DNA of 64,000 nt from an uncultured Victivallales bacterium (GCA_964345005.1 CAYFPQ010000001.1:38751-102750); one strand, 5' to 3'; shown: positions 1 to 44,635, counted from the first letter of the stretch. Notes: generated by a model from the letters alone, not told the origin. Numbers and translations are program-made.

Positions 1-410
1 CAACTCTGACATATGCCAAGCTATGCAAGGCATGTTTGTTGCTGCAGGACCCGGATGTCGCCTACTGGGCCACACACTGCGATGTGGTCTGCCCAACGGA
101 AAATGGTGACATACCCGATATTGGGGCTACTATGGCGCTTATTGAGGCCGCTTGCGGTCGACGTCCGGACCGGGTATTCGGCAAACCCTCGATCGATATG
201 CTCAAGGCGGCGATGGATGCAAGGGGAGCAACTGCTTCGCAATGCTTGATGGTTGGCGATCGGGTTTACACTGACTACGAGATGGCGAAGAGGGCGGGTA
301 TACAGTTCATCGGTGTTTTGACAGGTGATTCAGATCTCGCCGCCTACCAGTCCTGTCAGAATACCATTGTTGTCCCTTCTGTCGCAGATCTGTTTGTCCA
401 AAATGCGTGA
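1..410 (+). CDS. HAD-superfamily hydrolase (HAD-IIA/NagD-like), 5'-partial; only the C-terminal part lies in the window
   Basis: Frame-3 ORF is open from nt 1. Translation carries the HAD motif III/IV region (...GKPS...MVGDRVYTDYEMAKRAGIQFIGVLTG...) typical of NagD-type sugar phosphatases. Confidence 0.6.
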   Translation, partial: TLTYAKLCKACLLLQDPDVAYWATHCDVVCPTENGDIPDIGATMALIEAACGRRPDRVFGKPSIDMLKAAMDARGATASQCLMVGDRVYTDYEMAKRAGIQFIGVLTGDSDLAAYQSCQNTIVVPSVADLFVQNA

Positions 411-1377
411 CTTAGCCCCCATACTCGTAAGTGTCTATGATCGCCGCTGGCACCTTGAGCAGTGCATCGAGGGGCTCAAGCGCAATGATCTCGCCAAGGA
501 CAGCATCCTCTATGTTGTCTCCGACGGTTCGGCCAAGCCCGAGCATGATGAGTCGGTTGCATCGGTTAGGGCGTACATCGACCAGATCACAGGCTTCAAA
601 GAGGTCCGCAAGATATATCGTCCCGAGAACTGGGGCGCGCACCGTTGTTGCATGGCGGCGAACAACCAGGTGCTTGCGGAGCACGGCCGGATGATCCGAA
701 TGGAGGACGATGTTGTATGTACCAAGTACTACCTGCAATATCTCAACCAAGCCCTTGATCTTTACGAGGATGATCCACGGATTTTCTCTGTGTGCGCTTA
801 CAGCTATGCTGGCCTAAAGATTCCGCGCAGCTACCCGAATGATGTGTTCTTGTGGTCGCGTCTCTCGACTTGGGGGTATGGGATATGGAAAGACAGATGG
901 AAGGCTGTGGACTTTGAGATGACTAGGTACCCAGAGTTTGTTGCCGACAGGTCTGCTGTCAAGAGATATAGGCGCATCGCACCAGATAGCGGGCATTTGG
1001 AGGATGACGCAAGGGGTCTGATCGAGGCGACTGATTCAAAGATGGGTTTTCACATGTTTCTTAATAACATGTACAGTGTCTACCCTGTACATTCTCTGAC
1101 TAAGAACATCGGAAATGATGGTACAGGTTGTCGTTGTGGCAAAAGCCGTCGCCTGCAGCGCCAGGCAATCGAAGATTGTCCGGTGGTGCTGACAGAACAT
1201 CTTGAGCCCAATAGGGCTATCCACAGGAGGCTCTACTGGAGTCGGTTTTCATTTTCCGTGCATGTGGTTGGGCGCGTGCTTAGGCGGCTAGGAGTATTCG
1301 ATTTGTGCTACCGTCTGTATCGACGCGCTAGAGGCCTAAGAGTCGAGCCGTCTGCCCGCAGTGATCGCAGTCGCTAG
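403..1377 (+). CDS. GT-A fold glycosyltransferase-like protein (family-2-like)
   Basis: 324-aa ORF. The ATG at 403 is the first in-frame start after the HAD stop; the longer track ORF from 325 overlaps the HAD gene. N-terminus 'ILVSVYDRRWHLEQCIEGL...YVVSDGS' resembles a GT2 nucleotide-binding fold with a degenerate DxD; assignment is weak. Confidence 0.5.
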   Translation: MRDLAPILVSVYDRRWHLEQCIEGLKRNDLAKDSILYVVSDGSAKPEHDESVASVRAYIDQITGFKEVRKIYRPENWGAHRCCMAANNQVLAEHGRMIRMEDDVVCTKYYLQYLNQALDLYEDDPRIFSVCAYSYAGLKIPRSYPNDVFLWSRLSTWGYGIWKDRWKAVDFEMTRYPEFVADRSAVKRYRRIAPDSGHLEDDARGLIEATDSKMGFHMFLNNMYSVYPVHSLTKNIGNDGTGCRCGKSRRLQRQAIEDCPVVLTEHLEPNRAIHRRLYWSRFSFSVHVVGRVLRRLGVFDLCYRLYRRARGLRVEPSARSDRSR

Positions 1378-1434: not shown

Positions 1435-2175
1435 TCATGAGGAATAGCCCTTGGTATAGAGAACGTCGAAGCGATACTCGCTATTCACAAGGAAGTCAGC
1501 CTGCTCAATGACTTTCGCCTTCACGTCTTCCCGGTAGGCTGCGATGGCATCGAAGAACTCGCGGTCAAACCATGTACCTATCATGGGGCGGCACTCCAGA
1601 ATGCGTTGGATGTAATCCTTGCGAAACTCCGGCTTGTCCAAATACTGCCAAAGCTTGCGGGCATCAGGCACATCGCCGACCAGCAACCGTCCTCCAGGCC
1701 TCAGGAGTTCGATAGCTCTGTCAATCAAGCGAACGGCGTCTCGCTGGTCAAAATGCTGGATCGCGAAGTAGATTACAACGACATCGGCAGATGCTTCAGG
1801 CAGTTCGACTTCAAGCACATCACCGTGAAGTGTATCGAAGACGTTAGGGAAGAGCTCACGCGCTTGCGCAAGAAGCCCTTCGGAGAAATCGACGCCGACA
1901 GAACTCGCACATCTTTTCGCTAGTGGGCCTAGAAGCAATCCGTTGCCGCAACATAGCTCAACGAGGTCACTGCTTTCTTCCAGGCAAGTCAGCTTGGCAA
2001 CATACTCTACTGTCCGTTCCCATTGGTCCGCGGGAACGGGAACCCCGTTCCGGGTTCGGCCTACGTTCTTCTGTGGGCATCCGGCACACACGACGCTGCG
2101 ACGGTTCCAGAATTCTTGCCAGTATGCCGCACCACCCTCTCCAGCCTGGCTCGCGCAATCCGATACAGAACTCAC
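1435..2175 (-). CDS. class I SAM-dependent methyltransferase
   Basis: 246-aa ORF with the glycine-rich SAM motif 'LVELCCGNGLL' and an acidic loop (Methyltransf_11/25-like). Last gene of the minus-strand sugar operon. Confidence 0.75.
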   Translation of the reverse strand: MSSVSDCASQAGEGGAAYWQEFWNRRSVVCAGCPQKNVGRTRNGVPVPADQWERTVEYVAKLTCLEESSDLVELCCGNGLLLGPLAKRCASSVGVDFSEGLLAQARELFPNVFDTLHGDVLEVELPEASADVVVIYFAIQHFDQRDAVRLIDRAIELLRPGGRLLVGDVPDARKLWQYLDKPEFRKDYIQRILECRPMIGTWFDREFFDAIAAYREDVKAKVIEQADFLVNSEYRFDVLYTKGYSS

Positions 2176-2188
2176 ATCACCATCCGAT

Positions 2189-2857
2189 TCAGTTCAGTCT
2201 GATTTTGTTCCTGTTGACAGGGAGGGGAATATTCGCTGGCGCCTTTATGATTGCGCCCTCGTCGACGTTCTCAAGAATCATTGTTCCGGCCCCAACCACC
2301 GCTTCGCGACCGATCCGTACGTTCCCTCGCAACGCGGCGTTGATGCCAACAAAGGCGTGAGGCTCTATCACTACGCCGCCAGACATCGCCGCTCTCGGCG
2401 CAATGTAGCAGTACTCGCCCAACTTGACGTCGTGACCGATGTAGGCCATTGAGCGAACGATAACTCCATCGGAGATCTCCGTGAATGGCTCGATGACAGC
2501 TCCCGGACTGATAATCACGTTCTCGCCAATACTGACGCCTGGCGCGACTACTGCATCTTTGCTGACGTAGGAAAGGAGCGAATAGCCTTTCTCATGTACC
2601 TCTTCACATTTCTGCTTGTCCAGCATGCGGTTAGTCACTCTCTGAAGTGTGAGAACAACGAGTACCTTGCATTCTTCAGGAGAGATAAAATCATTCAGAT
2701 TCTCAAAGGCAACGACGGGCAAAGAATCCAGTTCCGATTCCTCGATATAGTCCCTGTCCACAGTGAACCCGACCATGGAATATCGATTATCATGTCTGAT
2801 ATAGTGTGCAACCGTGCGCGACAGTCCTCCAGCGCCAAATATCACAACCTTGGTCAT
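2189..2857 (-). CDS. NeuD/PglD-family sugar N-acyl/acetyltransferase (hexapeptide, left-handed beta-helix)
   Basis: 222 aa. N-terminal Rossmann-like 'KVVIFGAGG' followed by hexapeptide repeats (GVSIGENVIISPGAVI...), the typical NeuD/PglD architecture. Confidence 0.75.
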   Translation of the reverse strand: MTKVVIFGAGGLSRTVAHYIRHDNRYSMVGFTVDRDYIEESELDSLPVVAFENLNDFISPEECKVLVVLTLQRVTNRMLDKQKCEEVHEKGYSLLSYVSKDAVVAPGVSIGENVIISPGAVIEPFTEISDGVIVRSMAYIGHDVKLGEYCYIAPRAAMSGGVVIEPHAFVGINAALRGNVRIGREAVVGAGTMILENVDEGAIIKAPANIPLPVNRNKIRLN

Positions 2858-3729
2858 CAGTCCTCCCGTGGTGTTATCTCCAGGCTAAGCCGTCTGCGCA
2901 CATCGGCTGGCGAGGCTATTTCTATCTGGAATAGGTCGCAGAATTTCTTGATTCGTTTCAAGAGTGCCATGTTTGTTGCCAAGGTCTTGCGCTCAGGGGT
3001 AGCCCAGATATTGTCCTCCAAACCGATCCTGACTCCCCCACCATTGGTGATACCATTTAGGTTCATCTTCAGCTGTGAGTCACCGATTCCTGCTACAGAC
3101 CAAACTGAGTCTTCCGGAAGCTCAGACAGCATGACCCCGAGGTTCAAGACATTCGCCTGCGCGCAGGCGATATTCCCAAAGAGAAGATTGAAGTAAAAAG
3201 GGGGAGCCAACAGCTTTTTCTTGTAGAGGTACTTTGCATAGTTGATCATTCCCACGTCGAACGCCTCCAGTTCTGGTTTAATGCCGCGCTCAAGCATCTT
3301 CCGTGCAAGCTTCTGGATCGTGTCAGGGCTATTGACGCTGGCAATCCGATTGAAATTCAGGGAGCTCAGGGTCAAACTCGCCATGTCCGGTTTGCTCTTC
3401 CCATCGAGATCCAGGCACTCTGACCGTTTCTCAAAATCAGGCCAATTCCGTCCGCTTGTTGATACGCCAAGAACCAGGGAGCTGTTATCATACCCGTCGC
3501 TCTCGCGTATTCCGTCGATGATCTCCTTGTACACGGACTTAGAGAACGTCGGCACGCCATCCTTGTCCCGCGCGTGAAGGTGGACCATGGAGACACCGTA
3601 TCTGCGGGCTTCGAGGACCTCATCGATGATCTCCTGCGGAGAAACGGGCACGTGGGGAGTCATCTTCTTGGTGGGAATCATGCCCGTCGGGGTGAAATTG
3701 ATGATGACCCCCAGACCTTCTTCTCTCAT
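2857..3729 (-). CDS. BKACE-family enzyme (DUF849; 3-keto-5-aminohexanoate cleavage enzyme-like)
   Basis: TIM-barrel BKACE signature 'VIINFTPTGMIPTKKMTPHVP...VHLHARD...' . The start is set at ATG 3729 because a GGAGGT Shine-Dalgarno lies 7 nt upstream; the longer ORF to 3777 is less likely. Confidence 0.75.
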   Translation of the reverse strand: MREEGLGVIINFTPTGMIPTKKMTPHVPVSPQEIIDEVLEARRYGVSMVHLHARDKDGVPTFSKSVYKEIIDGIRESDGYDNSSLVLGVSTSGRNWPDFEKRSECLDLDGKSKPDMASLTLSSLNFNRIASVNSPDTIQKLARKMLERGIKPELEAFDVGMINYAKYLYKKKLLAPPFYFNLLFGNIACAQANVLNLGVMLSELPEDSVWSVAGIGDSQLKMNLNGITNGGGVRIGLEDNIWATPERKTLATNMALLKRIKKFCDLFQIEIASPADVRRRLSLEITPRED

Positions 3730-3929
3730 ATCAGGACCTCCGACCCGCTTTCTCCTATTGGCAACACTGAATAACACGTATCCTTGGCGGAACAGGCGTC
3801 GGGCGAGCCCCCGAATACCAGATTCTCAGACGTGCTGCCGATCCGCCAAGACCTTCAGGCGGAACCAAGCACCGAGCCAACTGAGAGGCAAGAGACGAAC
3901 ATGGCAGAATAGGCGTACCAACTCCTTCG

Positions 3930-4943
3930 CTAGTGCCGTTGACGGTTCTTCAGGACTCTCTCCAGGATTTCCTGGCGATAGGGATCAAGATGAACCAACT
4001 GAGTATACCGAAACATCTCGCAGTCCCGGCAGAAGGGCATTTCACTGCGCTCGCCCCTCAGGAACTTGACCTGATACTCAAAGAGGATGTCCGACTCCCA
4101 TACCTCCTTTATGCTCTGCTCCCGCAAGTCCCCCACAACGAGCTTGTGGTCCCAGTCGGCAGAGCACAGAATGGCCTTTCCATCTGAAGTGATTCGCATC
4201 TTGTAGAAAACAAACGGACACACTTCGGAAGATTCGAAGACTTCGTCGCCAAGCATGGTGTGCTGAACATCGGGCCATTCGATATCATGGGAAGGCCAAT
4301 AGGGAACGAGGTGTTCAAGGAAGATTTGGTCGCAGATGGGCGAGAAGGTCTCCAGGAACACCCGTTTCTGATCTTCATCGAGACACTCAGCCATTGCCTT
4401 GGTCGTAATCACACAGCCCTGACGGTGCTCAAATACATACTTGATGTTGCGCACATATTCTTGGAAATCAACCTGTTTGCCTGTGACCCGGTTGAAGTGC
4501 TCATCCGACGTGCCGTTCACTGAGATATCCAGTTGGTCCAGGCCCGCCTCGATCAGAGGAATGGCACGCTCTTGAGTCAGCAGGGATCCATTGGTAACAA
4601 GGCTGATGCGGTTGAGGTACGACTTCTCTTTCGCATATGCAACCATGTCGGGCAGGCGCGGGTTGATCAACGGCTCCCCATGCATGCCAAGTTCCAGCAT
4701 CTTTATGGGAACGCCGAATTCCTCTATGTCGTCGATAATCTTCTTGAAGAGGTCAAGTTCCATCAGGCCAGGCACGCGCTGGCTGGTGGTGGAATTCTTG
4801 TCGCTACACATTGGACAGAAGAAACACTCGAAATTACAGAGGCTGGAGGAATCCACCAAGATCGAATACGGTGCCGGGAGCGGAATTCGCTCGTGCAGCG
4901 GCTCGTAGTTCTCCTTCTTTGCTCTCGATTTGTACTTCGCCAT
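3930..4943 (-). CDS. radical SAM enzyme with C-terminal SPASM/twitch cysteine cluster
   Basis: CxxxCxxC motif 'CNFECFFC' near the N-terminus. C-terminal Cys-rich region '...CPFVFYKM...CSADWD...CRDCEMF' is SPASM-like. 337 aa. Confidence 0.8.
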   Translation of the reverse strand: MAKYKSRAKKENYEPLHERIPLPAPYSILVDSSSLCNFECFFCPMCSDKNSTTSQRVPGLMELDLFKKIIDDIEEFGVPIKMLELGMHGEPLINPRLPDMVAYAKEKSYLNRISLVTNGSLLTQERAIPLIEAGLDQLDISVNGTSDEHFNRVTGKQVDFQEYVRNIKYVFEHRQGCVITTKAMAECLDEDQKRVFLETFSPICDQIFLEHLVPYWPSHDIEWPDVQHTMLGDEVFESSEVCPFVFYKMRITSDGKAILCSADWDHKLVVGDLREQSIKEVWESDILFEYQVKFLRGERSEMPFCRDCEMFRYTQLVHLDPYRQEILERVLKNRQRH

Positions 4944-4987
4944 GGCGCGTCACTCCCTAAGAAGTTCATGCCGGTCAGGAGCCCCGA

Positions 4988-5719
4988 TCACTCGCCCTTG
5001 ATGATGTATGCCGTCGGTGTCCAGGAGTTGGGTATGGTTCGAACGACTGCACCGGGTAGACACTCATGCAATGCCGCAGTTTCTCCCGGGGCCAGCTCAA
5101 TGGAGTACTGATCGAAGATAATGATGCCCTTCTCGTTGAGTCTTTCCCAGAAGAATGGCAGACACGCTTTGACCACGTCGTACCGGCCACAGTCCATCAT
5201 GATGAGCTTGAAACGCAAATGACTGTTCTGCTCAAAGAACCCCGCGATATCCGCTCGCAGATCCAGGTTATGGAGTTTGAGGATATTGTCCATGCCCTGC
5301 ATCTTCACCATTTCCAGAACGTCTTCGTATTCCGCCCTATACCCTCCGTTGGCCGTCAGTTCGGAATCCTTATCGCCTGCAACCATGCCCTGGAACCAAT
5401 CGAAACCGTGACACAAGGTTAGCGCCTCCGATTCGAATATCTTGATGAGTTTTGCAAAGAGCAGTGAGGAACCGCCTTTGTAGACACCTACGTCTGCTAC
5501 GTGTCCGGCAATGCCCAGTACCTGCTTGTAGAGTTCATAGAGGGTAAAGCAACGATTGAGCGTCATGTGGCCGGTAAACGCGGTGAAGTGATAGATTAGA
5601 TCCTCGTGTGAGATGTTCCGCTCTCTTACGTACTCAACATAGCGATAGAACTCATCTCGACGATGGTCGAACTTGACGCTTTCCATCTTCCCATAAGTGT
5701 GCCCCTGAGACTCAGGCAT
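4988..5719 (-). CDS. TylF/MycF (macrocin-O-methyltransferase) family sugar O-methyltransferase
   Basis: 243 aa. 'DVGVYKGGSSLLFAKL...' SAM-binding region and overall TylF-like length and pattern. Confidence 0.75.
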   Translation of the reverse strand: MPESQGHTYGKMESVKFDHRRDEFYRYVEYVRERNISHEDLIYHFTAFTGHMTLNRCFTLYELYKQVLGIAGHVADVGVYKGGSSLLFAKLIKIFESEALTLCHGFDWFQGMVAGDKDSELTANGGYRAEYEDVLEMVKMQGMDNILKLHNLDLRADIAGFFEQNSHLRFKLIMMDCGRYDVVKACLPFFWERLNEKGIIIFDQYSIELAPGETAALHECLPGAVVRTIPNSWTPTAYIIKGE

Positions 5720-5915
5720 ATGACAGCCCCTTCTTGTTCACCCCTGTTCTGGAGGTATTCGTGATAGTCGACACAGCGCCTGCACCGAGGGGCCCAGAGC
5801 CCAAACAGGAGGCAGCCCTGTGCCGTTGGATTACCAATGCACGACGAATTGACATGAATCCAGAATCGCATAAGAGCGGACCTGAACACAAGGCGAGAAA
5901 AGGCGTGCAAGGGTC

Positions 5916-6650
5916 CTATCCAATCAACGAGTAGCTGGACAACAGTTTTCTTGTATCCTCAACGGAATTGAACATCATAACATCAACAATCGACAGGTTG
6001 GGCTCAAAGGGATTCCCGAATTGCCTGTAGGCTAGGTCTGGGTCCACGCGCAGGAATGCCAGATCGATGCCTGCATCTGAGAATGACTTGCTGTCGTACA
6101 GAGAGACTCCTCCTATTGGGTTGACGTAGGTCGCCGCGCCCTCATGCTGGCAGATAGCAATCACTCTGTCTTGGCCTTTGAGTGAATGGTCAACATCGAG
6201 GTGAGATGATATTGCCATCGAAGGTGTCATCTGCAGGTAGGAGCAGGCAGCCTTTAGAGAGTGAAGAATAAAGTCGAACAGATTCGTCTTGCTGTGCATC
6301 ACGCACTCCTCGACGAGGGGATAGGCATCGTCGAAGAAAGGGGCTCGCCGATACGCATTGCGAACTACGTTGAGGATCTTCTGTCTATCTCTATTGCTGT
6401 TCACGGCGATTTCTCGCTCGCAGACATGCAGTGTATCGGATGCATGCGCAACAGGTATGGTAAACACCCTTGGTGAACCGTGATCCAGAATGCGGTTTCG
6501 TTGGATCCATCCTTTCTTTGTGAACTCCACGTTGTCATAGACCACAAACCTGTCTGCACAGGTGAGTAGCTGGAAATACCCAATGTACGGAAGGAAGTAC
6601 GGCTGCATAATCGCCACTCTGGGCGCTTTGCATTGAGCAGGTTCAGGCAT
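5916..6650 (-). CDS. WbqC-family protein
   Basis: N-terminus 'VAIMQPYFLPYIGYFQLL...' is the conserved WbqC-like signature seen in O-antigen/perosamine-type clusters. 244 aa. Confidence 0.75.
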   Translation of the reverse strand: MPEPAQCKAPRVAIMQPYFLPYIGYFQLLTCADRFVVYDNVEFTKKGWIQRNRILDHGSPRVFTIPVAHASDTLHVCEREIAVNSNRDRQKILNVVRNAYRRAPFFDDAYPLVEECVMHSKTNLFDFILHSLKAACSYLQMTPSMAISSHLDVDHSLKGQDRVIAICQHEGAATYVNPIGGVSLYDSKSFSDAGIDLAFLRVDPDLAYRQFGNPFEPNLSIVDVMMFNSVEDTRKLLSSYSLIG

Positions 6651-7905
6651 GGGGATGTCCCTCCCTGATGCGCAGTATTGGCCGTAGAGGCTGATGCTGA
6701 CTGCGGGATCTGATCTGCTCCGCGTGTTCTCTAGCGAACGATATCAGACTGCATATGCGGCGGACCTGCGCCTGAGAAAGAAGGGGGCCCGTAGGTAGCA
6801 CTAGTACGCTATCGCAGGTTTGCCGCGTCGCTCCAAGGTTCCTGCCTCTCGCGTCTGGGGCACTGTGGCTGTGGTACGGCGCCATCATGTCACATCCCGG
6901 AAAGAAATAACGCCTCGCCATTATTCGCTCTGCCTCCAGGACGGCCAGCAATTCGTCACGCCTGAGGCCGAAGGTGTCAGCGGCCACCTCGGTGACCACG
7001 TAGTGATGCATGTTTGTCTGTGCCTCCTGGTACGTGACTAGGCCGATTCCGGGGATGTCCTTCAGGTGTTCGGCGTAGAGGGCGTGGTTCTCGCGATTGC
7101 GCTGGACGATACTGGGCAAGGCATCAAGCATGGACAGACCCATTACGGCTGAGACTTCGCTCATTTTGCCATTGGTGCCGAGGTAGATGACGTTGTCGCG
7201 ACCAGCGAAGCCAAAATTGGTCATTAGGCGTGCCTTCTCTGCCAGCTCTGCATTGTTCGTGACGATCGCGCCACCTTCAAACGTGCTGATGACTTTAGTG
7301 GCGTGGAAGCTGAAGACTTCGGCTTCGCCGAAATTGCCTATGTGTTTGCCATGGTAGGTGCTGCCGAAGGCGTGGGCGGCGTCGAAGATCAAGGGGAGGT
7401 CATGGCGTTTGGCGATGGTTTCAAGCGCGTCAGTATTGCATGGCTGTCCCCAGAGATGGGTTGCGCAGATGCCGCCGGTATTGGGGGTGATCAGGGATTC
7501 GACTTGCTCGGGGTCGATGTTGTGGGTTGCGGGATCAATGTCGCAGAACACCGGAGTCATGCCCTGCCACGCCATGGCGTGTGCAGTGGCGACGAAGGTA
7601 AAGGCGGGGACGATGATCTCGTTCCTAAAGCCGGCCGCACGGGCGGCGATTTCAAGGCCGATTGTTGCGTTGCAGACGGAGACGCAGTGCTTAGCGCCGG
7701 TGAATTCGCAGATGCGCTGCTCGAATTCGCGCACGTAGGGACCGAAGTTGGTGAACCAGCGGCTTTCAAGAATGTCGCGGAAACGGGCGAGGGTGGCGTC
7801 GATGTCGCCGACATTAGGGCGGCCGACGTGAAGGGGCTCGTCGAAGAGGGGGTTGCCTCCGAAGATGGCGAGGTCGTCGATGGTTTTCTTTTCGCGGTGA
7901 CTCAC
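6643..7905 (-). CDS. DegT/DnrJ/EryC1/StrS-family PLP-dependent sugar aminotransferase
   Basis: '...FDAAHAFGSTYHGKHIGNFGEAEVFSFHATKVISTFEGGAIV...' with the conserved Lys. First gene of the minus-strand operon; its stop overlaps the WbqC start by 8 nt. Confidence 0.85.
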   Translation of the reverse strand: MSHREKKTIDDLAIFGGNPLFDEPLHVGRPNVGDIDATLARFRDILESRWFTNFGPYVREFEQRICEFTGAKHCVSVCNATIGLEIAARAAGFRNEIIVPAFTFVATAHAMAWQGMTPVFCDIDPATHNIDPEQVESLITPNTGGICATHLWGQPCNTDALETIAKRHDLPLIFDAAHAFGSTYHGKHIGNFGEAEVFSFHATKVISTFEGGAIVTNNAELAEKARLMTNFGFAGRDNVIYLGTNGKMSEVSAVMGLSMLDALPSIVQRNRENHALYAEHLKDIPGIGLVTYQEAQTNMHHYVVTEVAADTFGLRRDELLAVLEAERIMARRYFFPGCDMMAPYHSHSAPDARGRNLGATRQTCDSVLVLPTGPLLSQAQVRRICSLISFAREHAEQIRSRSQHQPLRPILRIREGHPHA

Positions 7906-7914: not shown

Positions 7915-7992
7915 GAGTATGTGGTCTGTGGGCGGGGGAGGTCAAGGATGGGGAGGAAATCTCGCGCGGAGGCGCAAGGTGGAGAGCTGGGA
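7915..7992. repeat. copy of a composite dispersed repeat (shares the 24-mer GGGGGAGGTCAAGGATGGGGAGGA with 25395-25418)
   Basis: Identical 24-mer at 7932 and 25395, and similar flanks '...tgggattatga...'. Lies between the DegT start and the HEPN stop. Confidence 0.5.
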
Positions 7993-8409
7993 TTATGACT
8001 GGGGCAGGAATCCGTTTGCGACGAGATATTGCTCTGCTGCGGTGAGTATGTCTTGGGCATGGCCAAGATCTGCTCTGGCATCCGCCTCATCAATGCTGAC
8101 ACCGATGTCATAGTCGCCTGTCTGCCGCTCGCGGAACAGGCGCGCTATCTTCTTGCCAAAATCCTTTGGGAATATGCCTGATACAACGAAATGCTTGCCG
8201 AATTCGGCAATGGTGCCACTGTGTGTGGAACAGGTGATGTCTCTGCTGAGTAGCAATGCCTCCAACGCATAGAAAGCAGTGTAATAGGCACGGGAGGCAC
8301 CGAAGTCGTAGTCACCCGCATCCACATCACGCTTTGCAGAAGCCATCGCTCGGCGTCCTTTGGTCAGCAAAGCTTGCAGTTGACTAGCCAGCTCGGGCGA
8401 AGGGGTCAT
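7993..8409 (-). CDS. HEPN domain protein (toxin-like partner of the upstream MNT)
   Basis: 138 aa. HEPN-type helical protein with 'R...AYYTAFYALEALL' and Rx4-6H-like features. Overlaps the MNT gene by 4 nt. Confidence 0.8.
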   Translation of the reverse strand: MTPSPELASQLQALLTKGRRAMASAKRDVDAGDYDFGASRAYYTAFYALEALLLSRDITCSTHSGTIAEFGKHFVVSGIFPKDFGKKIARLFRERQTGDYDIGVSIDEADARADLGHAQDILTAAEQYLVANGFLPQS

Positions 8410-8744
8410 ACAGGTACGCCTTCCTTCTCAATGTTCATGAAAAGTGGGTCAAACTTGCGGCCACGGGCAGTCGATTCGCTTGTCAAAAAGGCGGCCATGA
8501 CAACGCCAAACTGGTACAGCATTTGGCCCGCAATCTCATCGATTGCGTCTTTCATGTTGCGATTGACTTCGTCGACCACCACCAAGAGGTCATAATCGGA
8601 GTCGGGCTTGGCGTCCCCACGTGCACGTGAGCCAAACAGCACAATGCGTTTCAGGTGGCGGCCGAATTGTGCTTGGATACTGCCTCGGATGCGAGAGAGC
8701 ACCTGTGCTTGTTCGGCATGGTCATGTGCGCTTGTTTCAACCAT
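8406..8744 (-). CDS. nucleotidyltransferase (MNT) domain protein, HEPN-MNT module
   Basis: 'LFGSRARGDAKPDSDYDLLVVV' is the polymerase-beta-type NTase GS...D.D motif. 112 aa. Confidence 0.8.
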   Translation of the reverse strand: MVETSAHDHAEQAQVLSRIRGSIQAQFGRHLKRIVLFGSRARGDAKPDSDYDLLVVVDEVNRNMKDAIDEIAGQMLYQFGVVMAAFLTSESTARGRKFDPLFMNIEKEGVPV

Positions 8745-9878: not shown

Positions 9879-9934
9879 CATCTGTCTGCTTCCACAAATA
9901 CACACCATTGGAGCTGGTGAGAGGGCTACTTGGT

Positions 9935-12589
9935 ATGCGCAAACGATGCTTTTCGCGGCGGGCTGGAGTCGCAGCGCTTTTCTTGGTGCTGCTGCTCTCT
10001 GTATTCTGGGAGCCGTTGAATGGAGGGCGGTCGCTATACACAGGAGATTCGAATCTCGGCATCATCATGGCTCGGAAGGCCGGGCTGCCTGAACGTTGGT
10101 TCGGCGGTTGGGGAACACATGTGCTGCTCGGAGGTGCGGGCAGCACGCCGCTTACGCTGAGCCGGATGATGCACTGGTGGTTGCCTGCGGAGACATTCAA
10201 CGATCTGTCGTATGGTCTTTGTCTTCTTGTCGGCGCGCTATTGCTTGGGGCGTTTCTTCGGTTGCGGGGTGTTGGGTTTGTCGGAGTATGCCTTGCGGGG
10301 TTGGCAGCTTTCTGGACGGGCTCCAACCTGACGCTTCTCTATCCGGGGCATCTGGAAAAGTTCTTCTGTGTGATGTTGGGGACGGTGGTATTGGTGTGCC
10401 TGGAGAAGCTGGTCCTCACGCGACGGTGGCTGTGGGGGGGGCTGGCTGGTGGGGCTCTGGGCGGGATGTTTCTGGAGCAGCAGGATGTGGCGCTGTTCAT
10501 GGGGATCTTTCTGGGGGCGTATGCGGTGTATGCGATGCTGCGGGAGCAGCGGTTGCAGGAGGGCGGAGGTCAGAAGTCGGAAGTCGGAGGTCTGAGAAGA
10601 TCTGTGCGGTCACTAGGGGCTCTTGCTTTGCGTCTTGGACCGGTGGTGGCGGTGGCATTGTTGCTTGTGGGGCCGATTGTTGGGAAAACGTATCGGACGA
10701 AGGTTACGGAGACGGCTTCGGTTGGTGAAGGCGCCGGTGAGCAGCAGAAATGGGAATTCTGCACGCAGTGGAGTCTGCCGGTCGAGGAGTCACTGGATTT
10801 CATTGCTCCCAATTTCTTCGGGATCAGATCGGGCGCTCCCGCAGGTCCGTATTGGGGGCGGACCGGGCAATCGGCGGGATGGGAGCAGACGAAGCGGGGG
10901 CTGCGTAATCTGCGTACGGAAGGGATCTATATCGGGGTTATCCCGGTAGGGTTGGCGCTGCTCGGGGTGCTGTTGGCTCTGCTGGGTGGAGCAAACGAAG
11001 GCAATGAGAACACCGAACAGCCAACAAGGAACACCCAACTCCCAACGAACGGAAGAAGATGGGATGCGATCTTCTGGGGGGTAGTGGCGCTGGTGACGTT
11101 GCTGCTGTCGTATGGAAAGTTTGCGCCTTTCTATCGGTGGTTCTGGCAATTGCCGATGGTGCATCCGATTCGGAATCCCAACAAGCACCTGCACATGTTC
11201 CAGATTGCCATCGGCGTTCTTGCAGCGTTTGGTGTGGACGGTTTGCTGCGGGGGCAGTGGGCTGAGACAAGGCGTGGACGAGCGATCGTTTGGTGTGGTG
11301 CCGGGCTGTTTGTCTTGGCTGCCGTCGGGATGTTCATTGGCAGCGGGTTTACTCAAGGAACGAGTGGCGCTCTGGTGCAGGGGTTTATGAAGAACGGCTG
11401 GGGGCAGGCTGCTCCGGTGATCGTGCAGAACATGATTCGGGCGCTGGTGCATGGCGGGTGGATGGCGGTACTTGGATGTACTTGTGTTGCAGGGGTGGTG
11501 CTGGGAAGGATGGGAATGTTCTCGCGCAGAGGCGCGGAGGCGCAGAGAGGGAAATGGATCGGTGTTGGATGTGTTTGCGCCTTGGCCGTGGCGGTTGCAG
11601 CGGATTGCGTGTGGTATTCGCGTGATTACGTTAAGACGGTGGATGCCGATGCGGTTGTGGGTGAAAATGCGGTGACAGAGTACCTGAAGGAGAACCTTGG
11701 CTCACAGCGGGTGTTGTTCTTCTCTCAGTCGGGGTTCTACAACCAGTGGCTCTCAACGCTCTTTCGTGCGCATCTGATACCGTCACTTAACGCACCTTCA
11801 ATGGAAAGGCTGAGCAAGCAGTATCAGGAGTTTCTCGACACTGTGGGCAAGAATCCGCTTCGGCTTTGGGAGCTTGCAGGGATTCGGTATGCACTGGGGC
11901 CGGTGCAGGTCTGGTCGCAGATTCAAGGGCAGCCTGAATGGAAAGAGGCCTTTGAGCCAGTCATGGGGTTCAATGTCTTTCAGCGAAAGGGCGGCGTGGG
12001 TGTTGAGCCTGTGAGATCCGGACAGACGCCGCAGCATTTGGTTCTTAAGTACAAGCGGGGGATGGACAGGTATACCCTGGTGCCGTCTTGGCGGAGTGTG
12101 CCTGATGATATGGCTTGTGCAGAATTGGTGAAGGCGGGGTTTGATCCGCACACAGAGGCTTTGATGTCACCGACGTTTGCTCAAGAAATACCTGTTGGCG
12201 ATGCGACATCGCCCCCAGGGCGTGTAGATATTCTGAAGGAGACAGTTTCGTCGATGCGTGTCAAAACGCGGGCGCAAGGCGCACAGCTGATGGTTGTCAG
12301 TCAGCTCTATGATCAGGACTTCTGGGCAACTGTGGATGGTCAACCGGTACCAGTGGTGCGCTGTAATTTCTTGTGTCTGGGTGTTCCTGTTCCGGACGGC
12401 GAACATGATGTGGTTATTCGGTACCGCCCAAGTCTAGCGGGTTTCTTCGTCCAAGTGACTGGGGTGCTGGCTGTATTGGGGGCGGCGGTGGGCTTGGTGT
12501 TGTCAAGGAGGCCCCTCCGTCGCGCTGTGCGCTATGGAGGGCAAGCGGAGGCCGGAGGCCCGAGGTCGGAAGTCGAAGCAGAGAAGTGA
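9935..12589 (+). CDS. large polytopic membrane protein (YfhO-like / GT-C-like); function uncertain
   Basis: 884 aa with many hydrophobic segments and a large C-terminal soluble domain. Start set at ATG 9935; the track's TTG at 9908 gives an extension encoded by inserted DNA. Contains in-frame heptamer-repeat-derived segments at 10563-10596 (GGQKSEVGG), at ~10990-11050, and at the C-terminus (PRSEVEAEK*). Confidence 0.65.
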   Translation: MRKRCFSRRAGVAALFLVLLLSVFWEPLNGGRSLYTGDSNLGIIMARKAGLPERWFGGWGTHVLLGGAGSTPLTLSRMMHWWLPAETFNDLSYGLCLLVGALLLGAFLRLRGVGFVGVCLAGLAAFWTGSNLTLLYPGHLEKFFCVMLGTVVLVCLEKLVLTRRWLWGGLAGGALGGMFLEQQDVALFMGIFLGAYAVYAMLREQRLQEGGGQKSEVGGLRRSVRSLGALALRLGPVVAVALLLVGPIVGKTYRTKVTETASVGEGAGEQQKWEFCTQWSLPVEESLDFIAPNFFGIRSGAPAGPYWGRTGQSAGWEQTKRGLRNLRTEGIYIGVIPVGLALLGVLLALLGGANEGNENTEQPTRNTQLPTNGRRWDAIFWGVVALVTLLLSYGKFAPFYRWFWQLPMVHPIRNPNKHLHMFQIAIGVLAAFGVDGLLRGQWAETRRGRAIVWCGAGLFVLAAVGMFIGSGFTQGTSGALVQGFMKNGWGQAAPVIVQNMIRALVHGGWMAVLGCTCVAGVVLGRMGMFSRRGAEAQRGKWIGVGCVCALAVAVAADCVWYSRDYVKTVDADAVVGENAVTEYLKENLGSQRVLFFSQSGFYNQWLSTLFRAHLIPSLNAPSMERLSKQYQEFLDTVGKNPLRLWELAGIRYALGPVQVWSQIQGQPEWKEAFEPVMGFNVFQRKGGVGVEPVRSGQTPQHLVLKYKRGMDRYTLVPSWRSVPDDMACAELVKAGFDPHTEALMSPTFAQEIPVGDATSPPGRVDILKETVSSMRVKTRAQGAQLMVVSQLYDQDFWATVDGQPVPVVRCNFLCLGVPVPDGEHDVVIRYRPSLAGFFVQVTGVLAVLGAAVGLVLSRRPLRRAVRYGGQAEAGGPRSEVEAEK
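10563..10596. repeat. in-frame heptanucleotide tandem array (GGAGGTC AGAAGTC GGAAGTC GGAGGTC) inside a CDS
   Basis: Same GGAAGTC-type units as at 29384-29420, 29694-29721, 25419-25475 and 12546-12590. Confidence 0.7.
10990..11050. repeat. in-frame copy of the MITE-arm-like 7-nt-unit motif (gaacacc gaacagc caacaag gaacacc caactcc caacgaa)
   Basis: Shares the core CCAACAAGGAA with the MITE arms at 14900-14930 and with 35153-35189. Encodes 'NENTEQPTRNTQLPTNG'. Confidence 0.5.
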
Positions 12590-12732: not shown

Positions 12733-13914
12733 TTGAAAAATGAAAGCCAAGCGTTCAATATTCAAGAAATGAAGGTTCGTAGAGACAGGTTGGAGTCGGC
12801 GGTTCGTGATGCGCTCAGGCGAGGGCGCTGCGTGGGACTCTCGGGTCCGCGACAGTGCGGCAAGAGCACGCTGGCAAGAGATATCGCGAGCCTGGAGTCG
12901 GCGGCTGCCTACTTCGACCTGGAAGACCCTGCGTCGGAAGCACGCCTGCAAGATCCAAAGCTAGCGCTACAGTCACTCCGGGGGCTGGTTGTTATCGATG
13001 AGATCCAGAGGCGCCCCGACCTGTTCCCGCTGCTGCGCGTGTTGCTGGATCGTGACCCGCTGCCAGCCAAGTTCCTTCTTCTGGGCAGTGCGTCACCGGA
13101 GCTGCTCCGAGGGGCATCGGAGAGCTTGGCGGGTCGGATCGAGTTCATCTCAATGAGTGGCTTCACACTGGACGAGACAGGAGATGACACCGCACGTCGG
13201 CTCTGGCAACGGGGTCGCTTCCCTCTGTCGTATCTGGCGTCAAATGACCATGACAGTATGAAATGGCGGTCAGCCTTCGTTCAGTCGTTCGTCGAGCGCG
13301 ATCTCAGACTTCTGGGGGTGGATCTGCCCCCCATGAGTGTACGGCGCCTGCTGACTATGCTTGCCCATTACCATGGCCAAACCTGGAATGCCTCAGAGAT
13401 AGGGAGAGCTCTTCAGCTATCGCACATGACCGTCAAGCGTTACCTGGACCTCCTCACCGGAGCCCTGCTTGTCAGACAGCTGCCTCCCTGGTTTGAGAAC
13501 GTGGGAAAGCGTGCAGTGAAGTCGGCAAAAGTCTACCTCAGAGACAGCGGGATATTGCACAGTCTCCTAGGGCTCGAGCAAATGGAAGATATGGAGAGCC
13601 ATCCCAAGCTCGGCGCTTCATGGGAGGGCTTTGCGCTTGAGATGCTCTTGGCGTGGAAGGGGGATGACAACGCGTTTTTCTGGGGGACACATGGTGGCGC
13701 CGAACTGGACCTCTGTTGGATGACCGGCAAGGAGCGCGTGGGGGTTGAGCTCAAGTACACAAGTCGTCCGGCTGTTACTCGCTCCATGCACATCGCCTTG
13801 GCGGACCTGAGACTCGATCATCTTTACGTCGTGCATCCCGGAACAGAGGACTATCCGCTCGCCGATCGGGTAACGGCAGCCAGTCTGGCAGCTATGCGTG
13901 GTATTTTGGGGTAG
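12733..13914 (+). CDS. ATP-binding protein, AAA_14 + DUF4143 family
   Basis: Walker A 'GPRQCGKST', Walker B 'VVIDEIQ', C-terminal '...VYLRDSGILHSLLG...' DUF4143 signature. About 50% identical to the paralogue at 16918-18084. Confidence 0.85.
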   Translation: MKNESQAFNIQEMKVRRDRLESAVRDALRRGRCVGLSGPRQCGKSTLARDIASLESAAAYFDLEDPASEARLQDPKLALQSLRGLVVIDEIQRRPDLFPLLRVLLDRDPLPAKFLLLGSASPELLRGASESLAGRIEFISMSGFTLDETGDDTARRLWQRGRFPLSYLASNDHDSMKWRSAFVQSFVERDLRLLGVDLPPMSVRRLLTMLAHYHGQTWNASEIGRALQLSHMTVKRYLDLLTGALLVRQLPPWFENVGKRAVKSAKVYLRDSGILHSLLGLEQMEDMESHPKLGASWEGFALEMLLAWKGDDNAFFWGTHGGAELDLCWMTGKERVGVELKYTSRPAVTRSMHIALADLRLDHLYVVHPGTEDYPLADRVTAASLAAMRGILG

Positions 13915-15652: not shown

Positions 15653-16801
15653 ATGAACGGAAGGCAACAGGGCTCGGGGAGAACGGTCATATGTCCTGGT
15701 GGTTACGAAGCGTACGTGCCGGATCCCCTTCCTCCTGAGATCGAACTCACTCCAGCCCTCCTTCGCTCGCTCTCCGATGCAGACCGCCTGCTGGGGAAGC
15801 TGGCCGGCGAGGGACGGGCGCTACGGAACCCGCATCTGCTTATGCGCCCCTTCATCAAGCAGGAGGCCGTTCTCTCAAGCCGCATTGAGGGTACGCAAGC
15901 CACACTTGGAGAGCTTCTGGCTTCCGATGCGGGGGCAACAGTGAGCAGGAGTCCTGCCGATTTGCGGGAAGTGGCGAATTACGTCACGGCCCTTGAATAT
16001 GGCATAGGCCGTCTATCTTCGCTCCCCCTGTCGCTCAGGCTTGTTGCCGAGCTTCACGGGAAACTGATGCAGGGCGTCCGAGGCGAGCAGATGACGCCGG
16101 GTGAATTCCGTCGCAGTCAGAACTGGATTGGGCCTCCGGGCTGCACGCTTCAAAATGCATCATACGTTCCGCCGCCCGTCGCGGAACTGATGTCGTGTCT
16201 GAGCGACTGGGAGACGTTCCTGCACGACCGCTCGCTCCCACCGCTGATCCAGGCGGCTCTCATGCACAGTCAGTTTGAGGCCATACACCCCTTTCTGGAT
16301 GGCAATGGTCGCGTTGGCCGGTTGTTGATCACGCTTTTCCTCGTGGAGCGGGATATTCTTCCAACGCCGCTTCTGTATCTTAGCGCTTTCTTCGAGGTCA
16401 CGCGTCGCGATTACTACGATCGACTCAATGGGGTCACCAGCAATGCAGCCTGGGAGCAATGGATTGAGTATTTCCTGAACGGCGTTGCCCGGATGTCTGA
16501 AGATGTCCTAGTGCGGGCCGAAAGAATCAACAACCTGTTCGAAGCATGGCGGAACCTGGCAGCGGGAAAGAGCAAGACCGCGCTGGAGATTCTTCACCTG
16601 CTGGAAGAGAATCCGTATTGCACGATCACAAAGACGGCAGAGAAGCTCGGAGTAGCCTTTACCACGGCTCAGCGTGGCATCGATCGCCTGGCAGCACTTG
16701 GGGTGCTGGAGCCGGTCGACGACGCAAGGCGGAATCGCGTTTTCTCTGCCCGGGAAGTCATGGATATACTGGATGCGCCTCCGGCTTTCGTTACGGCCTG
16801 A
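15653..16801 (+). CDS. Fic/Doc family protein (class II, with N-terminal inhibitory SxxxEG helix and C-terminal wHTH)
   Basis: Fic motif 'HPFLDGNGRVGR'. Inhibitory motif 'SSRIEG' upstream in the same polypeptide. 382 aa. Confidence 0.9.
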   Translation: MNGRQQGSGRTVICPGGYEAYVPDPLPPEIELTPALLRSLSDADRLLGKLAGEGRALRNPHLLMRPFIKQEAVLSSRIEGTQATLGELLASDAGATVSRSPADLREVANYVTALEYGIGRLSSLPLSLRLVAELHGKLMQGVRGEQMTPGEFRRSQNWIGPPGCTLQNASYVPPPVAELMSCLSDWETFLHDRSLPPLIQAALMHSQFEAIHPFLDGNGRVGRLLITLFLVERDILPTPLLYLSAFFEVTRRDYYDRLNGVTSNAAWEQWIEYFLNGVARMSEDVLVRAERINNLFEAWRNLAAGKSKTALEILHLLEENPYCTITKTAEKLGVAFTTAQRGIDRLAALGVLEPVDDARRNRVFSAREVMDILDAPPAFVTA

Positions 16802-16917: not shown

Positions 16918-18084
16918 ATGCATGGATATATAAGAAGAAGCGCTGAATCTGAGGTGTTGTCGGCTCTGGCACGATCACCTGCTGTAGCCATACTTGGGCC
17001 GAGGCAGTGTGGAAAATCCACGCTCGCAGAGCATATGTTGCGTGGAAGAGACGCCGTAAGTCTCGACCTACAGTCACGGCAGGACCTCGCCAAACTGGCG
17101 GAGCCCGAACTCTTCTTGGAGCAGCATCGGAGTCGCACGGTCTGCCTCGACGAGATTCAAAGACTCCCGGATTTCTTCACTATTCTGCGTTCTGAAATTG
17201 ATCGTGATCGTCGTCCGGGACGGTTTCTGATTCTTGGCTCTGCTTCCCGTGACCTGATCCGTCAGTCCAGCGAGACGTTGGCAGGCCGCATCGCGTATGT
17301 TCCGCTCACTCCGTTTCTGCTCCCCGAAGTGTCTTCCCGCGGCCCACTGTGGGACTTGTGGAGCCGAGGCGGTTTTCCTGAGAGTCTTCTGGCCTCGGAC
17401 GATGTGCAGAGTGCCGCCTGGCGGCGTGATTTCACGCAGACATTTCTGGAACGGGACATACCGGCCCTCGGGTTTTCGATACCGATGCCTGTCATGGATA
17501 GGCTCTGGCGACTACTTGCACACTACCATGGTCAGACGGCGAATTTCAGCAAGCTTGCCGAAGCAGCCGACATTTCCGTGCAGTCACTGCGTAAGTACCT
17601 GGCGCTTCTGGAGCAGACCTACATGTTGCGCATGTTGCCCCCCTACGAGGCGAATCTGAAGAAGCGCCTCGTGAAGGCGCCAAAACTGTACGTTAGAGAC
17701 AGCGGCGTCTTGCATTCCCTGTTGGAGATAGAGTCCTATGACCGTCTTCTTGGTCATAGCGTTGTGGGGGCATCCTGGGAGGGGTTTGCCTTGGAAAACA
17801 TCGTAGCTGGCCATCCGCTCTGGCGTTCTTCGTTTGTCAGGACGTCAAATGGCGCTGAGGTCGATCTGCTATTGGAGAGAGGGGGGATACGAAAGCTCTA
17901 CGAATTCAAGGCGTCCAAGGCGCCCAAACCTTCACGCGGTTTCCACCAACTGGTTCATGACCTCCTGCCTCAGTCTGCCGCCATTGTTGCGCCTGTCGAT
18001 GAGTCGTTTGCTATCGGGAAGGGCGTCCATGTTCTTACGTTGCTTGATGCGGTCGAAGGGCGCCGCGTGGGGCAGAGAGCTTGA
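16918..18084 (+). CDS. ATP-binding protein, AAA_14 + DUF4143 family (paralogue of 12733-13914)
   Basis: 'GPRQCGKST' ... 'VCLDEIQ' ... 'LYVRDSGVLHSLLE'. 388 aa. Confidence 0.85.
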   Translation: MHGYIRRSAESEVLSALARSPAVAILGPRQCGKSTLAEHMLRGRDAVSLDLQSRQDLAKLAEPELFLEQHRSRTVCLDEIQRLPDFFTILRSEIDRDRRPGRFLILGSASRDLIRQSSETLAGRIAYVPLTPFLLPEVSSRGPLWDLWSRGGFPESLLASDDVQSAAWRRDFTQTFLERDIPALGFSIPMPVMDRLWRLLAHYHGQTANFSKLAEAADISVQSLRKYLALLEQTYMLRMLPPYEANLKKRLVKAPKLYVRDSGVLHSLLEIESYDRLLGHSVVGASWEGFALENIVAGHPLWRSSFVRTSNGAEVDLLLERGGIRKLYEFKASKAPKPSRGFHQLVHDLLPQSAAIVAPVDESFAIGKGVHVLTLLDAVEGRRVGQRA

Positions 18085-21768: not shown

Positions 21769-21897
21769 GGATGTGTTTATAGCAGACGATTCAGGTAGAA
21801 GGAAGAAGGGAAGCCGCTTGCCTTTGGTCCGTGCGTATGTCTATTCTGTAGTCAAGATAGGCTTCGGTCGGGGAGCTTGGTAGGAAGGAGAGGCGCG

Positions 21898-25311
<3,414 letters not shown>

Positions 25312-40037: not shown

Positions 40038-40075
40038 GATTCGGGTCCTGTTGCTTTGTTCAGTGCCAGTGGTCG

Positions 40076-40170
40076 ATTGCGGCTCGCTGGGGACAGCTCG
40101 CCCTACCTCATCCTGCGCATGTCTTCACCCGGGCCCAGGTAGGGCTCGCCCTCCGGGCGAGCCGTTCGCC
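40076..40170. repeat. REP-like imperfect hairpin (GGCTCGCTGGGGACAGCTCGCCCTACCT ... AGGTAGGGCTCGCCCTCCGGGCGAGCC)
   Basis: Same family as 53609-53702 and 36621-36651. Overlaps the 3' end of the LbH protein ORF. Confidence 0.65.
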
Positions 40171-41372: not shown

Positions 41373-41488
41373 GGAAGAGGATCAATGTGTAAGAGTATGT
41401 GTACGAGTATGGTCTTGGGTATTCCGTACTTATACACGTACTCGTACACGTCAATCCTCCCGGCGCCGTCAGGCGCCACACGCTCCCG

Positions 41489-44620: not shown

Positions 44621-44635
44621 CTGCATAGTCATTTC

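Follow-up and report, generated by a model that had tools for sequence, protein, structure and literature searches.

A probable sugar-tailoring row of seven genes with a BKACE–acyltransferase pair in an uncultured Victivallales bacterium

Results

A row of seven genes on the minus strand

We analyzed a 64,000-nucleotide (nt) stretch of DNA from an uncultured Victivallales bacterium (GCA_964345005.1 CAYFPQ010000001.1:38751-102750), which as a whole is called the window below. Positions 1435-7905 hold seven open reading frames (ORFs), all on the minus strand, that encode, in order of transcription, a pyridoxal phosphate (PLP)-dependent aminotransferase of the DegT family, a WbqC-family protein, a TylF-like S-adenosylmethionine (SAM)-dependent O-methyltransferase, a radical SAM enzyme, a BKACE enzyme (beta-keto-acid cleavage enzyme; DUF849), a NeuD-like hexapeptide N-acyltransferase and a second SAM methyltransferase (Table 1). 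A preliminary description of this DNA had named seven co-directional genes with these domains, and the ORF calls as well as the Pfam and NCBIfam profiles bore out all of them. On balance, we favor the reading that the seven genes make up one unit for tailoring a glycan precursor, in which the BKACE enzyme would make a non-acetyl acyl-coenzyme A (acyl-CoA) and the NeuD-like enzyme would put the acyl group on a 4-amino-4,6-dideoxyhexose.

The genes had also been described as tightly spaced. That was true for a part of the row: the DegT and WbqC genes share 8 nt, one base is common to the BKACE stop and the NeuD-like start (TGATG, with GGGAGGA just upstream), and the spacings are 13 nt from the NeuD-like gene to the last methyltransferase gene and 44 nt from the TylF-like to the radical SAM gene. 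It was not true for two gaps of about 196 nt (5720-5915) and about 200 nt (3730-3929), which divide the row into the sub-blocks DegT-WbqC, TylF-radical SAM and BKACE-NeuD-methyltransferase. A terminator or promoter separating the BKACE and radical SAM genes from the DegT and WbqC genes had been named as an observation that would speak against a common role. We looked for such sites with a sigma-70 consensus and terminator scan and found no promoter-like or terminator-like site in either gap; folding and repeat analysis showed no RNA structure beyond random and no unusual repeats there. Rfam and tRNA scans gave no matches. The weak promoter match upstream of the DegT gene agrees with 9 of 12 consensus positions, while the total number of such sites in the window did not exceed the shuffled expectation; it is possibly the operon promoter.

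TABLE 1. Features of the window; the genes of the row come first, in order of transcription.
Feature	Position	Strand	Basis or remark
Predicted DesI-type PLP sugar 4-aminotransferase of the DegT family, opening the row	6643..7905	-	Pfam, NCBIfam, solved relatives
WbqC-family protein, second gene of the row	5916..6650	-	Pfam WbqC
Predicted TylF/CalS11-like SAM-dependent sugar O-methyltransferase	4988..5719	-	Pfam Methyltransf_24 + TylF
Radical SAM enzyme, predicted twitch-type C-terminal domain	3930..4943	-	Pfam Radical_SAM + SPASM
BKACE (DUF849) enzyme	2857..3729 (start revised from 3777)	-	Pfam BKACE
NeuD/PglD/VioB-type hexapeptide N-acyltransferase	2189..2857	-	TIGR03570, PglD_N, Hexapep
Methyltransf_11/25 protein, a class I SAM methyltransferase, at the end of the row	1435..2175	-	Pfam
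Weak match to a sigma-70-like promoter immediately upstream of the DegT start, possible operon promoter	7916..7945	-	Consensus scan
Family 2 glycosyltransferase (GT2), convergent with the row	325..1377	+	Pfam Glycos_transf_2
124-residue ORF matching only the C-terminal part of HAD hydrolases	36..410	+	Convergent on the row
HEPN toxin / MNT-type nucleotidyltransferase antitoxin pair, overlapping genes	7993-8744	-	88 nt upstream of the DegT start
893-residue membrane protein, YfhO-like, divergent from the row	9908-12589	+	C-terminal YfhO 27.7 vs 28.5-bit Pfam cut-off
Paralogous AAA_14 + DUF4143 ATPases flanking a Fic_N/Fic/HTH protein	12733-13914, 16918-18084 (Fic protein 15653-16801)	+	
772-residue DUF2961 protein facing a 1075-residue Laminin_G_3 protein	19450-25104	- (DUF2961), + (Laminin_G_3)	
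Second envelope-sugar region	38682-48153		GlmM, hexapeptide protein (40125-41372), GlmS, two family 4 glycosyltransferases (GT4)

Conservation of the row in other loci

Unrelated contigs contain the same set of genes, and therefore the arrangement of the seven genes is not a chance one. In two loci where the radical SAM protein is 81% identical to that of the window (L001 and L002), genes for TylF, radical SAM, WbqC, BKACE, NeuD and a Methyltransf_11 methyltransferase (MT11) follow each other in that order. The same six-gene order was observed at 66% identity of the radical SAM protein (L087, L173 and L174), a group that comprises at least 24 contigs. Both groups of cassettes lie in loci that contain NeuB, CTP_transf_3, Epimerase_2, Aminotran_3, glycosyltransferase and Maf-like genes. 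Two further loci (L003 and L007; radical SAM 58-59% identical) keep WbqC, radical SAM, TylF and MT11. The proposal of a sugar-tailoring operon thus gained support, since the block recurs in two other lineages and always inside glycan loci; co-occurrence with sugar genes, without which the proposal was to be given up, was found in every case examined.

In the window, the WbqC gene adjoins the DegT gene instead, and both are nearer to the WbqC and DesI-like DegT of L171, a locus for deoxythymidine diphosphate (dTDP)-linked sugars, than to the cassette versions. The row of the window is thus mosaic in composition, with each function still present in one copy. As a block, genes 2-7 behave like a portable cassette, which in other bacteria is inserted into nonulosonic-acid loci. 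In marine relatives, we also noted a 50-residue fragment of a Tn5-type transposase directly after the last cassette gene (L087:11916-12068, L173:10237-10389 and L174:7749-7901), a hint that the six-gene block is transferred as a whole.

The acyltransferase and its coupling to BKACE

The NeuD-like protein scored 169.8 with TIGR03570 (NeuD/PglB/VioB) against a subfamily cut-off of 160.8; it has a PglD_N domain at residues 3-67, followed by hexapeptide repeats, and its relatives of solved structure are PerB (E-value 8e-21), PglB/PglD and VioB. A census of BKACE neighbors covered 80 metagenome loci and four others, 31 of which had at least 700 nt on both sides. Among these 31 well-flanked loci, a hexapeptide or GNAT acyltransferase gene was directly adjacent on the same strand in 18. 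The BKACE and acyltransferase genes overlap or stand a few nt apart in L001, L087, L089 and L173. Such pairs were also seen in a lipopolysaccharide (LPS)-core locus (L088) and in a nonulosonate locus (L089). Conversely, the two loci that have no BKACE gene (L003 and L007) have no orthologous NeuD gene either, with best scores of about 50 bits, compared to 373-389 bits in the others.

The closest association was found in L137 (JGI contig Ga0315281_10000121), where a single ORF of 535 residues (L137:9995-11602) combines BKACE, PglD_N and Hexapep: BKACE takes residues 3-275, a linker of about 45 residues follows, and PglD_N with the hexapeptide repeats takes residues 321-512. This ORF is followed by a DesI-like DegT gene (506 bits to the DegT of the window), three GT2 genes and MT11. 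Upstream of it are a gene for an adenylation domain with a carrier protein (2217-4100) and a FemAB/GNAT-like gene.

In another variant of the pair, a GNAT protein of about 215 residues follows BKACE in place of the hexapeptide protein (L100, L101, L102, L118, L123, L135, L153, L155 and others). These loci, mostly from genomes of low G+C content, often contain 'sugar-transfer associated' ATP-grasp, FemAB-like and uridine diphosphate N-acetylglucosamine (UDP-GlcNAc) 2-epimerase genes.

We consider the functional link between BKACE and the acyltransferase the best-supported statement of this study, because adjacency, translational coupling, the joint loss in L003 and L007 and the natural fusion all point to it. 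BKACE is paired with three kinds of acyl-CoA-dependent transferase, and therefore a CoA thioester is the simplest link between the partners. The earlier suggestion that BKACE supplies the NeuD-like enzyme with an acyl donor is thus supported by conserved adjacency, by the stop/start overlap and by the BKACE-PglD/NeuD fusion.

The BKACE enzyme

The window protein matched the BKACE family (PF05853) with 259.7 bits against a cut-off of 24.8, over profile positions 2-274 of 274. Its gene most likely starts at 3729 rather than at 3777; the ATG at 3729 is preceded by GGAGG, and the database product has 290 residues. The motifs HLHARD, STSGR, ELEAFD and R..GLEDN are conserved. Residues H50, H52, E155, R234, E238 and D239 (290-residue numbering) align with the conserved motifs of BKACEs of known structure and do not vary among 13 members of the subfamily. 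On the model of Kce, they make up a metal site of HxH and Glu and the catalytic Glu, Arg and Asp.

The subfamily is tight, its members being 53-86% identical to the window protein, and one metagenome scan gave at least 589 relatives. Four NCBIfam BKACE models (three equivalogs and one of exception type) matched the window protein, each below its cut-off: 227 against 382 (Kce, NF052387), 175 against 350, 150 against 430 and 130 against 725. A canonical BKACE converts a beta-keto acid and acetyl-CoA to acetoacetate and an acyl-CoA two carbons shorter than the keto acid. Two earlier statements on this enzyme have to be revised. BKACEs had been said not to be normally found in glycan clusters, while this subfamily occurs in glycan loci regularly; and a 3-hydroxybutanoyl or acetoacetyl group had been named as an example of the acyl group, while nothing points to either and acetoacetate is canonically the by-product. 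No paper tying BKACE or DUF849 to glycan loci was found in the literature searched. A catabolic role of the window BKACE was considered and rejected on synteny.

The radical SAM enzyme and its family

The radical SAM protein (337 residues) scored 62.5 bits with PF04055 against a cut-off of 29.5, and 45.9 bits with Pfam SPASM. The cysteines of the CX3CX2C motif (C36, C40 and C43) are nearly invariant in the family. Across 31 family members the only further invariant cysteines are C242, C260, C305 and C308, with no cysteine after the CX2C; the seven or eight conserved C-terminal cysteines of a two-cluster SPASM domain are not found. We read the four conserved cysteines as the mark of a twitch-type domain with a single auxiliary cluster, not of a full SPASM domain.

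The best relatives of solved structure by sequence were BtrN (E-value 1e-14) and DesII (5e-7). The AlphaFold2 (AF2) model had a predicted local distance difference test (pLDDT) score of 90.9, and the top Foldseek matches to it were BtrN (E-value 4e-14, template modeling (TM) score 0.56, identity 18%), DesII, MoaA, SuiB and BlsE, with SpeY at rank 36, all at about 15-18% identity. A SPASM/twitch enzyme for C-methylation, epimerization or C–C chemistry had been proposed for this gene. The twitch domain stands up in our analysis, and the single-cluster, four-cysteine pattern argues for redox or lyase chemistry of the BtrN/DesII kind and not for C-methylation.

The family is large, with about 540 clusters at 50% identity (E-value at most 1e-30) in many phyla and 361 relatives in a scan of species-representative genomes. 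The locus search, which used an alignment of 11 close sequences, placed these proteins among sugar genes. The upstream neighbor on the same strand was an NAD-dependent sugar epimerase/dehydratase in 34 of 75 genome loci; downstream, a GT1-type glycosyltransferase (Pfam Glycos_transf_1) was found in 29 of 70 loci and an FkbM methyltransferase in 11 of 70. Three family loci that we looked at showed gene sets for cytidine diphosphate (CDP)- or dTDP-6-deoxyhexoses, and flagellar or Maf contexts. Maturation of a RiPP, a peptide made by ribosomes and modified after translation, was tried as a role for the SPASM enzyme and rejected on synteny. Two to five radical SAM paralogues stand in tandem, or nearly so, in L005 and L006 and in about 4-9 of the 70-75 genome loci, with genes for glycosyltransferases and FkbM methyltransferases between them, an arrangement suggestive of serial glycan modification.

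The DegT, methyltransferase and WbqC proteins

The DegT protein scored 364 bits with Pfam DegT_DnrJ_EryC1 and 491.8 with NCBIfam TIGR04427 (PLP_DesI, the dTDP-4-dehydro-6-deoxyglucose 4-aminotransferase), the latter under the equivalog cut-off of 650. Its best relative of solved structure was DesI (2po3; E-value 5e-117, 394.7 bits), the next one, perosamine synthetase, having 186 bits and an E-value of 1e-53; the PseC and LegC models were far lower. The protein is thus DesI-like by sequence, not a proven DesI.

The TylF-like methyltransferase had a marginal TylF score (PF05711; 29.5 against a gathering score of 23) and 36.6 with Methyltransf_24. Its best solved relative was CalS11, a TDP-rhamnose 3'-O-methyltransferase (E-value 1e-7), and its gene adjoins or nearly adjoins that of the radical SAM protein in all close relatives. 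The Methyltransf_11/25 gene that ends the row directly follows the NeuD-like gene in L001, L087 and L173 as well.

The WbqC protein (244 residues) matched PF08889 over its full length with 233.3 bits against a gathering score of 21.3. The function of this family is unassigned. No solved relative was found by sequence, and the AF2 model (pLDDT 91.5) had a sole fold match, BshC (4wbd), which was weak (E-value 8e-3, TM score 0.37). PtmG (Cj1324), the acetamidino synthase of legionaminic acid, was considered as an identity for WbqC and rejected, since PtmG is described as an amidotransferase and runs at about 45 kDa, and WbqC has 244 residues. The closest homologues (50-56%), those of L171 and L172, are located in dTDP-sugar and flagellin-glycosylation loci. 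In both of them the gene after WbqC encodes a product of about 328 residues without a clear Pfam family (L171:9795-10781 and L172:9744-10730), which is absent from the window. In L172, WbqC stands directly after the flagellin, FliD and FliS genes.

Surroundings of the row

The GT2 gene that converges with the row is probably a part of the same glycan locus, which would then extend beyond the left end of the window; GT2 genes come after the cassette in relatives, too. Next to it, at the border of the glycan locus, the short HAD-like ORF may represent a gene with a truncation or a frameshift. On the other side, the HEPN/MNT pair stands between the row and the divergent YfhO-like gene. YfhO-type proteins are cell-envelope glycan transferases, and the product of this gene could use the modified sugar.

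The G+C content was 52-53% over the first 6 kb, which take in much of the sugar row, compared to 58-61% in most of the window (56-64% elsewhere). Such a difference is typical of a variable glycan island and would agree with a cassette that was acquired horizontally. Elsewhere the window consists of chromosomal housekeeping genes (the fab operon, glmM, glmS, rlmN) together with a second, small glycosyltransferase region, which also has a small hexapeptide acetyltransferase and a 572-residue protein that matches MatE weakly and may be a flippase. One more Fic-domain protein is encoded at 49755-51248. The facing DUF2961 and Laminin_G_3 proteins are both very large, and their functions are unassigned.

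Discussion

Proposed pathway

In the pathway that we favor, the DesI-type aminotransferase would convert a nucleoside diphosphate (NDP)-4-keto-6-deoxyhexose, made elsewhere, to an NDP-4-amino-4,6-dideoxyhexose of the viosamine type, as its homology suggests. BKACE, whose gene is shown to be paired with that of the acyltransferase, would combine a beta-keto acid with acetyl-CoA and yield acetoacetate and a non-acetyl acyl-CoA; both this reaction and the nature of the acyl group are deduced. The NeuD/PglD-type enzyme would then use this acyl-CoA for N-acylation of the 4-amino group. The CalS11/TylF-like enzyme would O-methylate a ring hydroxyl at the nucleotide-sugar stage, and the second methyltransferase, always beside the acyltransferase, may methylate the acyl side chain or another position. 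For the twitch radical SAM enzyme we propose a class of reaction only, namely radical oxidation, epimerization or deamination/deoxygenation on the sugar, as with BtrN and DesII. WbqC would be an obligatory partner in the unit.

Several observations weigh against this pathway. All of its substrates are inferred. Precursor genes are absent: no NeuB, cytidine monophosphate (CMP)-transferase, nucleotidyltransferase, RmlA/B, dehydratase, epimerase or sugar short-chain dehydrogenase/reductase gene was found across the 64 kb, as the preliminary description had said for dehydratases and epimerases. Without a nucleotidyltransferase and a 4,6-dehydratase gene, neither the nucleotide nor the hexose is fixed. 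The two gaps of about 200 nt could house promoters invisible to the sigma-70 scan. Of the 31 BKACE loci with sufficient flanks, 13 have no adjacent acyltransferase gene when adjacency is judged strictly by phmmer, although several of these (e.g., L088, L137 and L168) do have a hexapeptide acyltransferase nearby or fused. The setting of the whole cassette in the two other lineages and a residue of the BKACE active site are further points of this kind, and each belongs to an alternative explanation.

Alternative explanations

The whole cassette sits, in those two lineages, in loci with NeuB and CMP-transferase genes and with a different type of DegT (about 260 bits), and therefore the acceptor may not be a simple hexose. 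The mechanism could be the same with a precursor of a nonulosonic acid, of the legionaminic or pseudaminic type, as the acceptor: the acyl groups would be those at N5 or N7 of a CMP-activated nine-carbon sugar, and the core genes would lie outside the window. The cassettes of L001, L087 and L173/L174 among NeuB, CTP_transf_3, Epimerase_2, Aminotran_3 and Maf-like genes fit this possibility, as do a 65%-identical BKACE with its hexapeptide partner beside NeuB, CTP_transf_3, a formyltransferase and WbqC in L089, and the probable continuation of the window locus past the left edge. We nevertheless find such an acceptor rather unlikely here. The window DegT is of the DesI type, not of the type found in NeuB loci, and no NeuB, CMP-transferase or 2-epimerase gene is present in the 64 kb. 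Moreover, L137 and L171 have a DesI-type DegT together with BKACE-NeuD or WbqC, beside RmlA/RmlC or GT2 genes and without NeuB.

A quite improbable alternative concerns the chemistry of BKACE, which could resemble that of BsfD: instead of making an acyl-CoA donor, it would transfer an acetyl group from acetyl-CoA to a beta-keto acid with formation of a C–C bond, decarboxylation would then leave a branched or diketo acid, and another enzyme, WbqC being a candidate ligase, would activate and attach it. F157 of the window protein, invariant in the subfamily, aligns with the position of the CoA-contacting Tyr in the 'FECYD' motif of 3e49; as read through this alignment, the window BKACE does not have the Tyr that contacts the CoA sulfur as Tyr145 in CcaKce and Tyr173 in PdKce (flavophos study). 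The same study links such a Phe in BsfD with non-canonical chemistry, in which acetyl is transferred without release of acyl-CoA; it could not demonstrate that the Phe is the cause of the altered chemistry. BshC, the sole fold match of WbqC, is an ADP-binding enzyme, and a gene for an adenylation domain with a carrier protein lies near the L137 fusion. BshC adds cysteine to an amino sugar. The match to BshC is weak and has no sequence support, however, and the hexapeptide and GNAT partners of BKACE, one of them fused to it, are both users of acyl-CoA, with which a shared CoA thioester fits best.

It is hardly credible that BKACE and the radical SAM enzyme are functionally unrelated to the sugar genes beside them (serving keto-acid or lysine-type catabolism and SPASM peptide maturation, respectively): characterized BKACEs are mostly catabolic, SPASM enzymes are mostly peptide maturases in the NCBIfam match lists, and the two gaps flank the TylF-radical SAM pair, yet both families keep their synteny with sugar genes across lineages and phyla, BKACE is fused to a sugar acyltransferase and falls under every NCBIfam BKACE equivalog cut-off, no lysine-fermentation or precursor peptide genes are nearby, and the structures nearest to the radical SAM protein are the carbohydrate-acting BtrN and DesII.

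Comparison with known systems

Among the closest known systems, the one that the proposed pathway mirrors is the viosamine island of Pseudomonas syringae pv. tabaci (vioA, vioB, vioM, vioS, vioR, acp, vioT), which leads to dTDP-N-(3-hydroxy-1-oxobutyl)-2-O-methylviosamine (PMC3927599). Common to the island and the window row are a DegT-type 4-aminotransferase, an N-acyltransferase of the NeuD/VioB type with about 213-222 residues, a sugar methyltransferase, a supply of the acyl donor in the same locus and, for the window presumably, a non-acetyl acyl group. The source of the donor is different. The island uses a beta-ketoacyl synthase III (KAS III), an acyl carrier protein (ACP) and a ketoreductase, whereas in the window row BKACE would take this part; Pfam showed no such trio in the seven genes, and the sole fabH, fabG and related genes of the window belong to the housekeeping fab operon at 30.5-36.6 kb. 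The row has in addition a radical SAM enzyme, WbqC and a second methyltransferase. Its aminotransferase is nearest to DesI in a comparison that covered solved structures.

The row resembles the desosamine pathway of Streptomyces venezuelae in having a DesI-type aminotransferase and a radical SAM enzyme whose sequence and fold both give DesII as a match. Unlike DesII, the radical SAM protein of the window has a predicted twitch domain within its 337 residues, is closer to BtrN and, at about 15-18% identity, is not a DesII orthologue. Unlike the desosamine pathway, the row has an N-acyltransferase, an enzyme that would serve no purpose were the amine to be taken off. With BtrN and SpeY, which are twitch radical SAM dehydrogenases from aminoglycoside and aminocyclitol pathways, the window enzyme would have in common one auxiliary 4Fe-4S cluster (C...GX4C...CX2C), besides small size and carbohydrate-like substrates. 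BtrN works alongside a DegT-family aminotransferase, BtrS, as the window enzyme would. In contrast to BtrN and SpeY, the substrate in the window would presumably be a nucleotide sugar, not a cyclitol, and the similarity to BtrN is limited (18% identity at a TM score of 0.56).

The BKACE protein shares with Kce (3-keto-5-aminohexanoate cleavage enzyme), other BKACEs and BsfD the TIM-barrel DUF849 family, the HxH and Glu, and the catalytic Glu, Arg and Asp. It differs from the characterized BKACEs in the Phe at the position of the CoA-contacting Tyr and in its context, which is that of glycan biosynthesis with an acyltransferase, not a catabolic one. The acyltransferase, for its part, has the PglD_N domain and left-handed beta-helix of PglD, PerB and VioB of bacillosamine, perosamine and viosamine synthesis. 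Those enzymes use acetyl-CoA, while the tie of the window enzyme to BKACE suggests another acyl-CoA.

A tailoring locus with a DegT aminotransferase, a NeuD-type acyltransferase and a methyltransferase is of a known kind. The novelty lies in the BKACE donor module and its fusion form, in the glycan-linked family of twitch radical SAM enzymes and in the obligatory WbqC partner, none of which was found described in the literature searched.

Significance

Uncommon N-acyl substituents of viosamine, bacillosamine, legionaminic acid and pseudaminic acid shape the antigenicity of O-antigen, capsule and flagellin. To our knowledge, the origin of the acyl donor is unknown for most of the unusual N-acyl groups on surface sugars. 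A BKACE subfamily tied to sugar acyltransferases offers a hypothesis testable in vitro, and a biosynthetic role for a large part of a family that is known mostly for catabolism. The analysis also marks two sizeable, uncharacterized and consistently glycan-linked families, the twitch radical SAM enzymes and WbqC, the latter now with a confident structural model. More tentatively, the BKACE-acyltransferase pair may be an unrecognized and widespread route to N-acyl groups of surface amino sugars, from beta-keto acids rather than by fatty-acid-type enzymes; the twitch radical SAM family may be a new class of radical enzymes acting on nucleotide sugars or glycans, and together with WbqC they may build a complex methylated acyl-amino sugar that is chemically undescribed.

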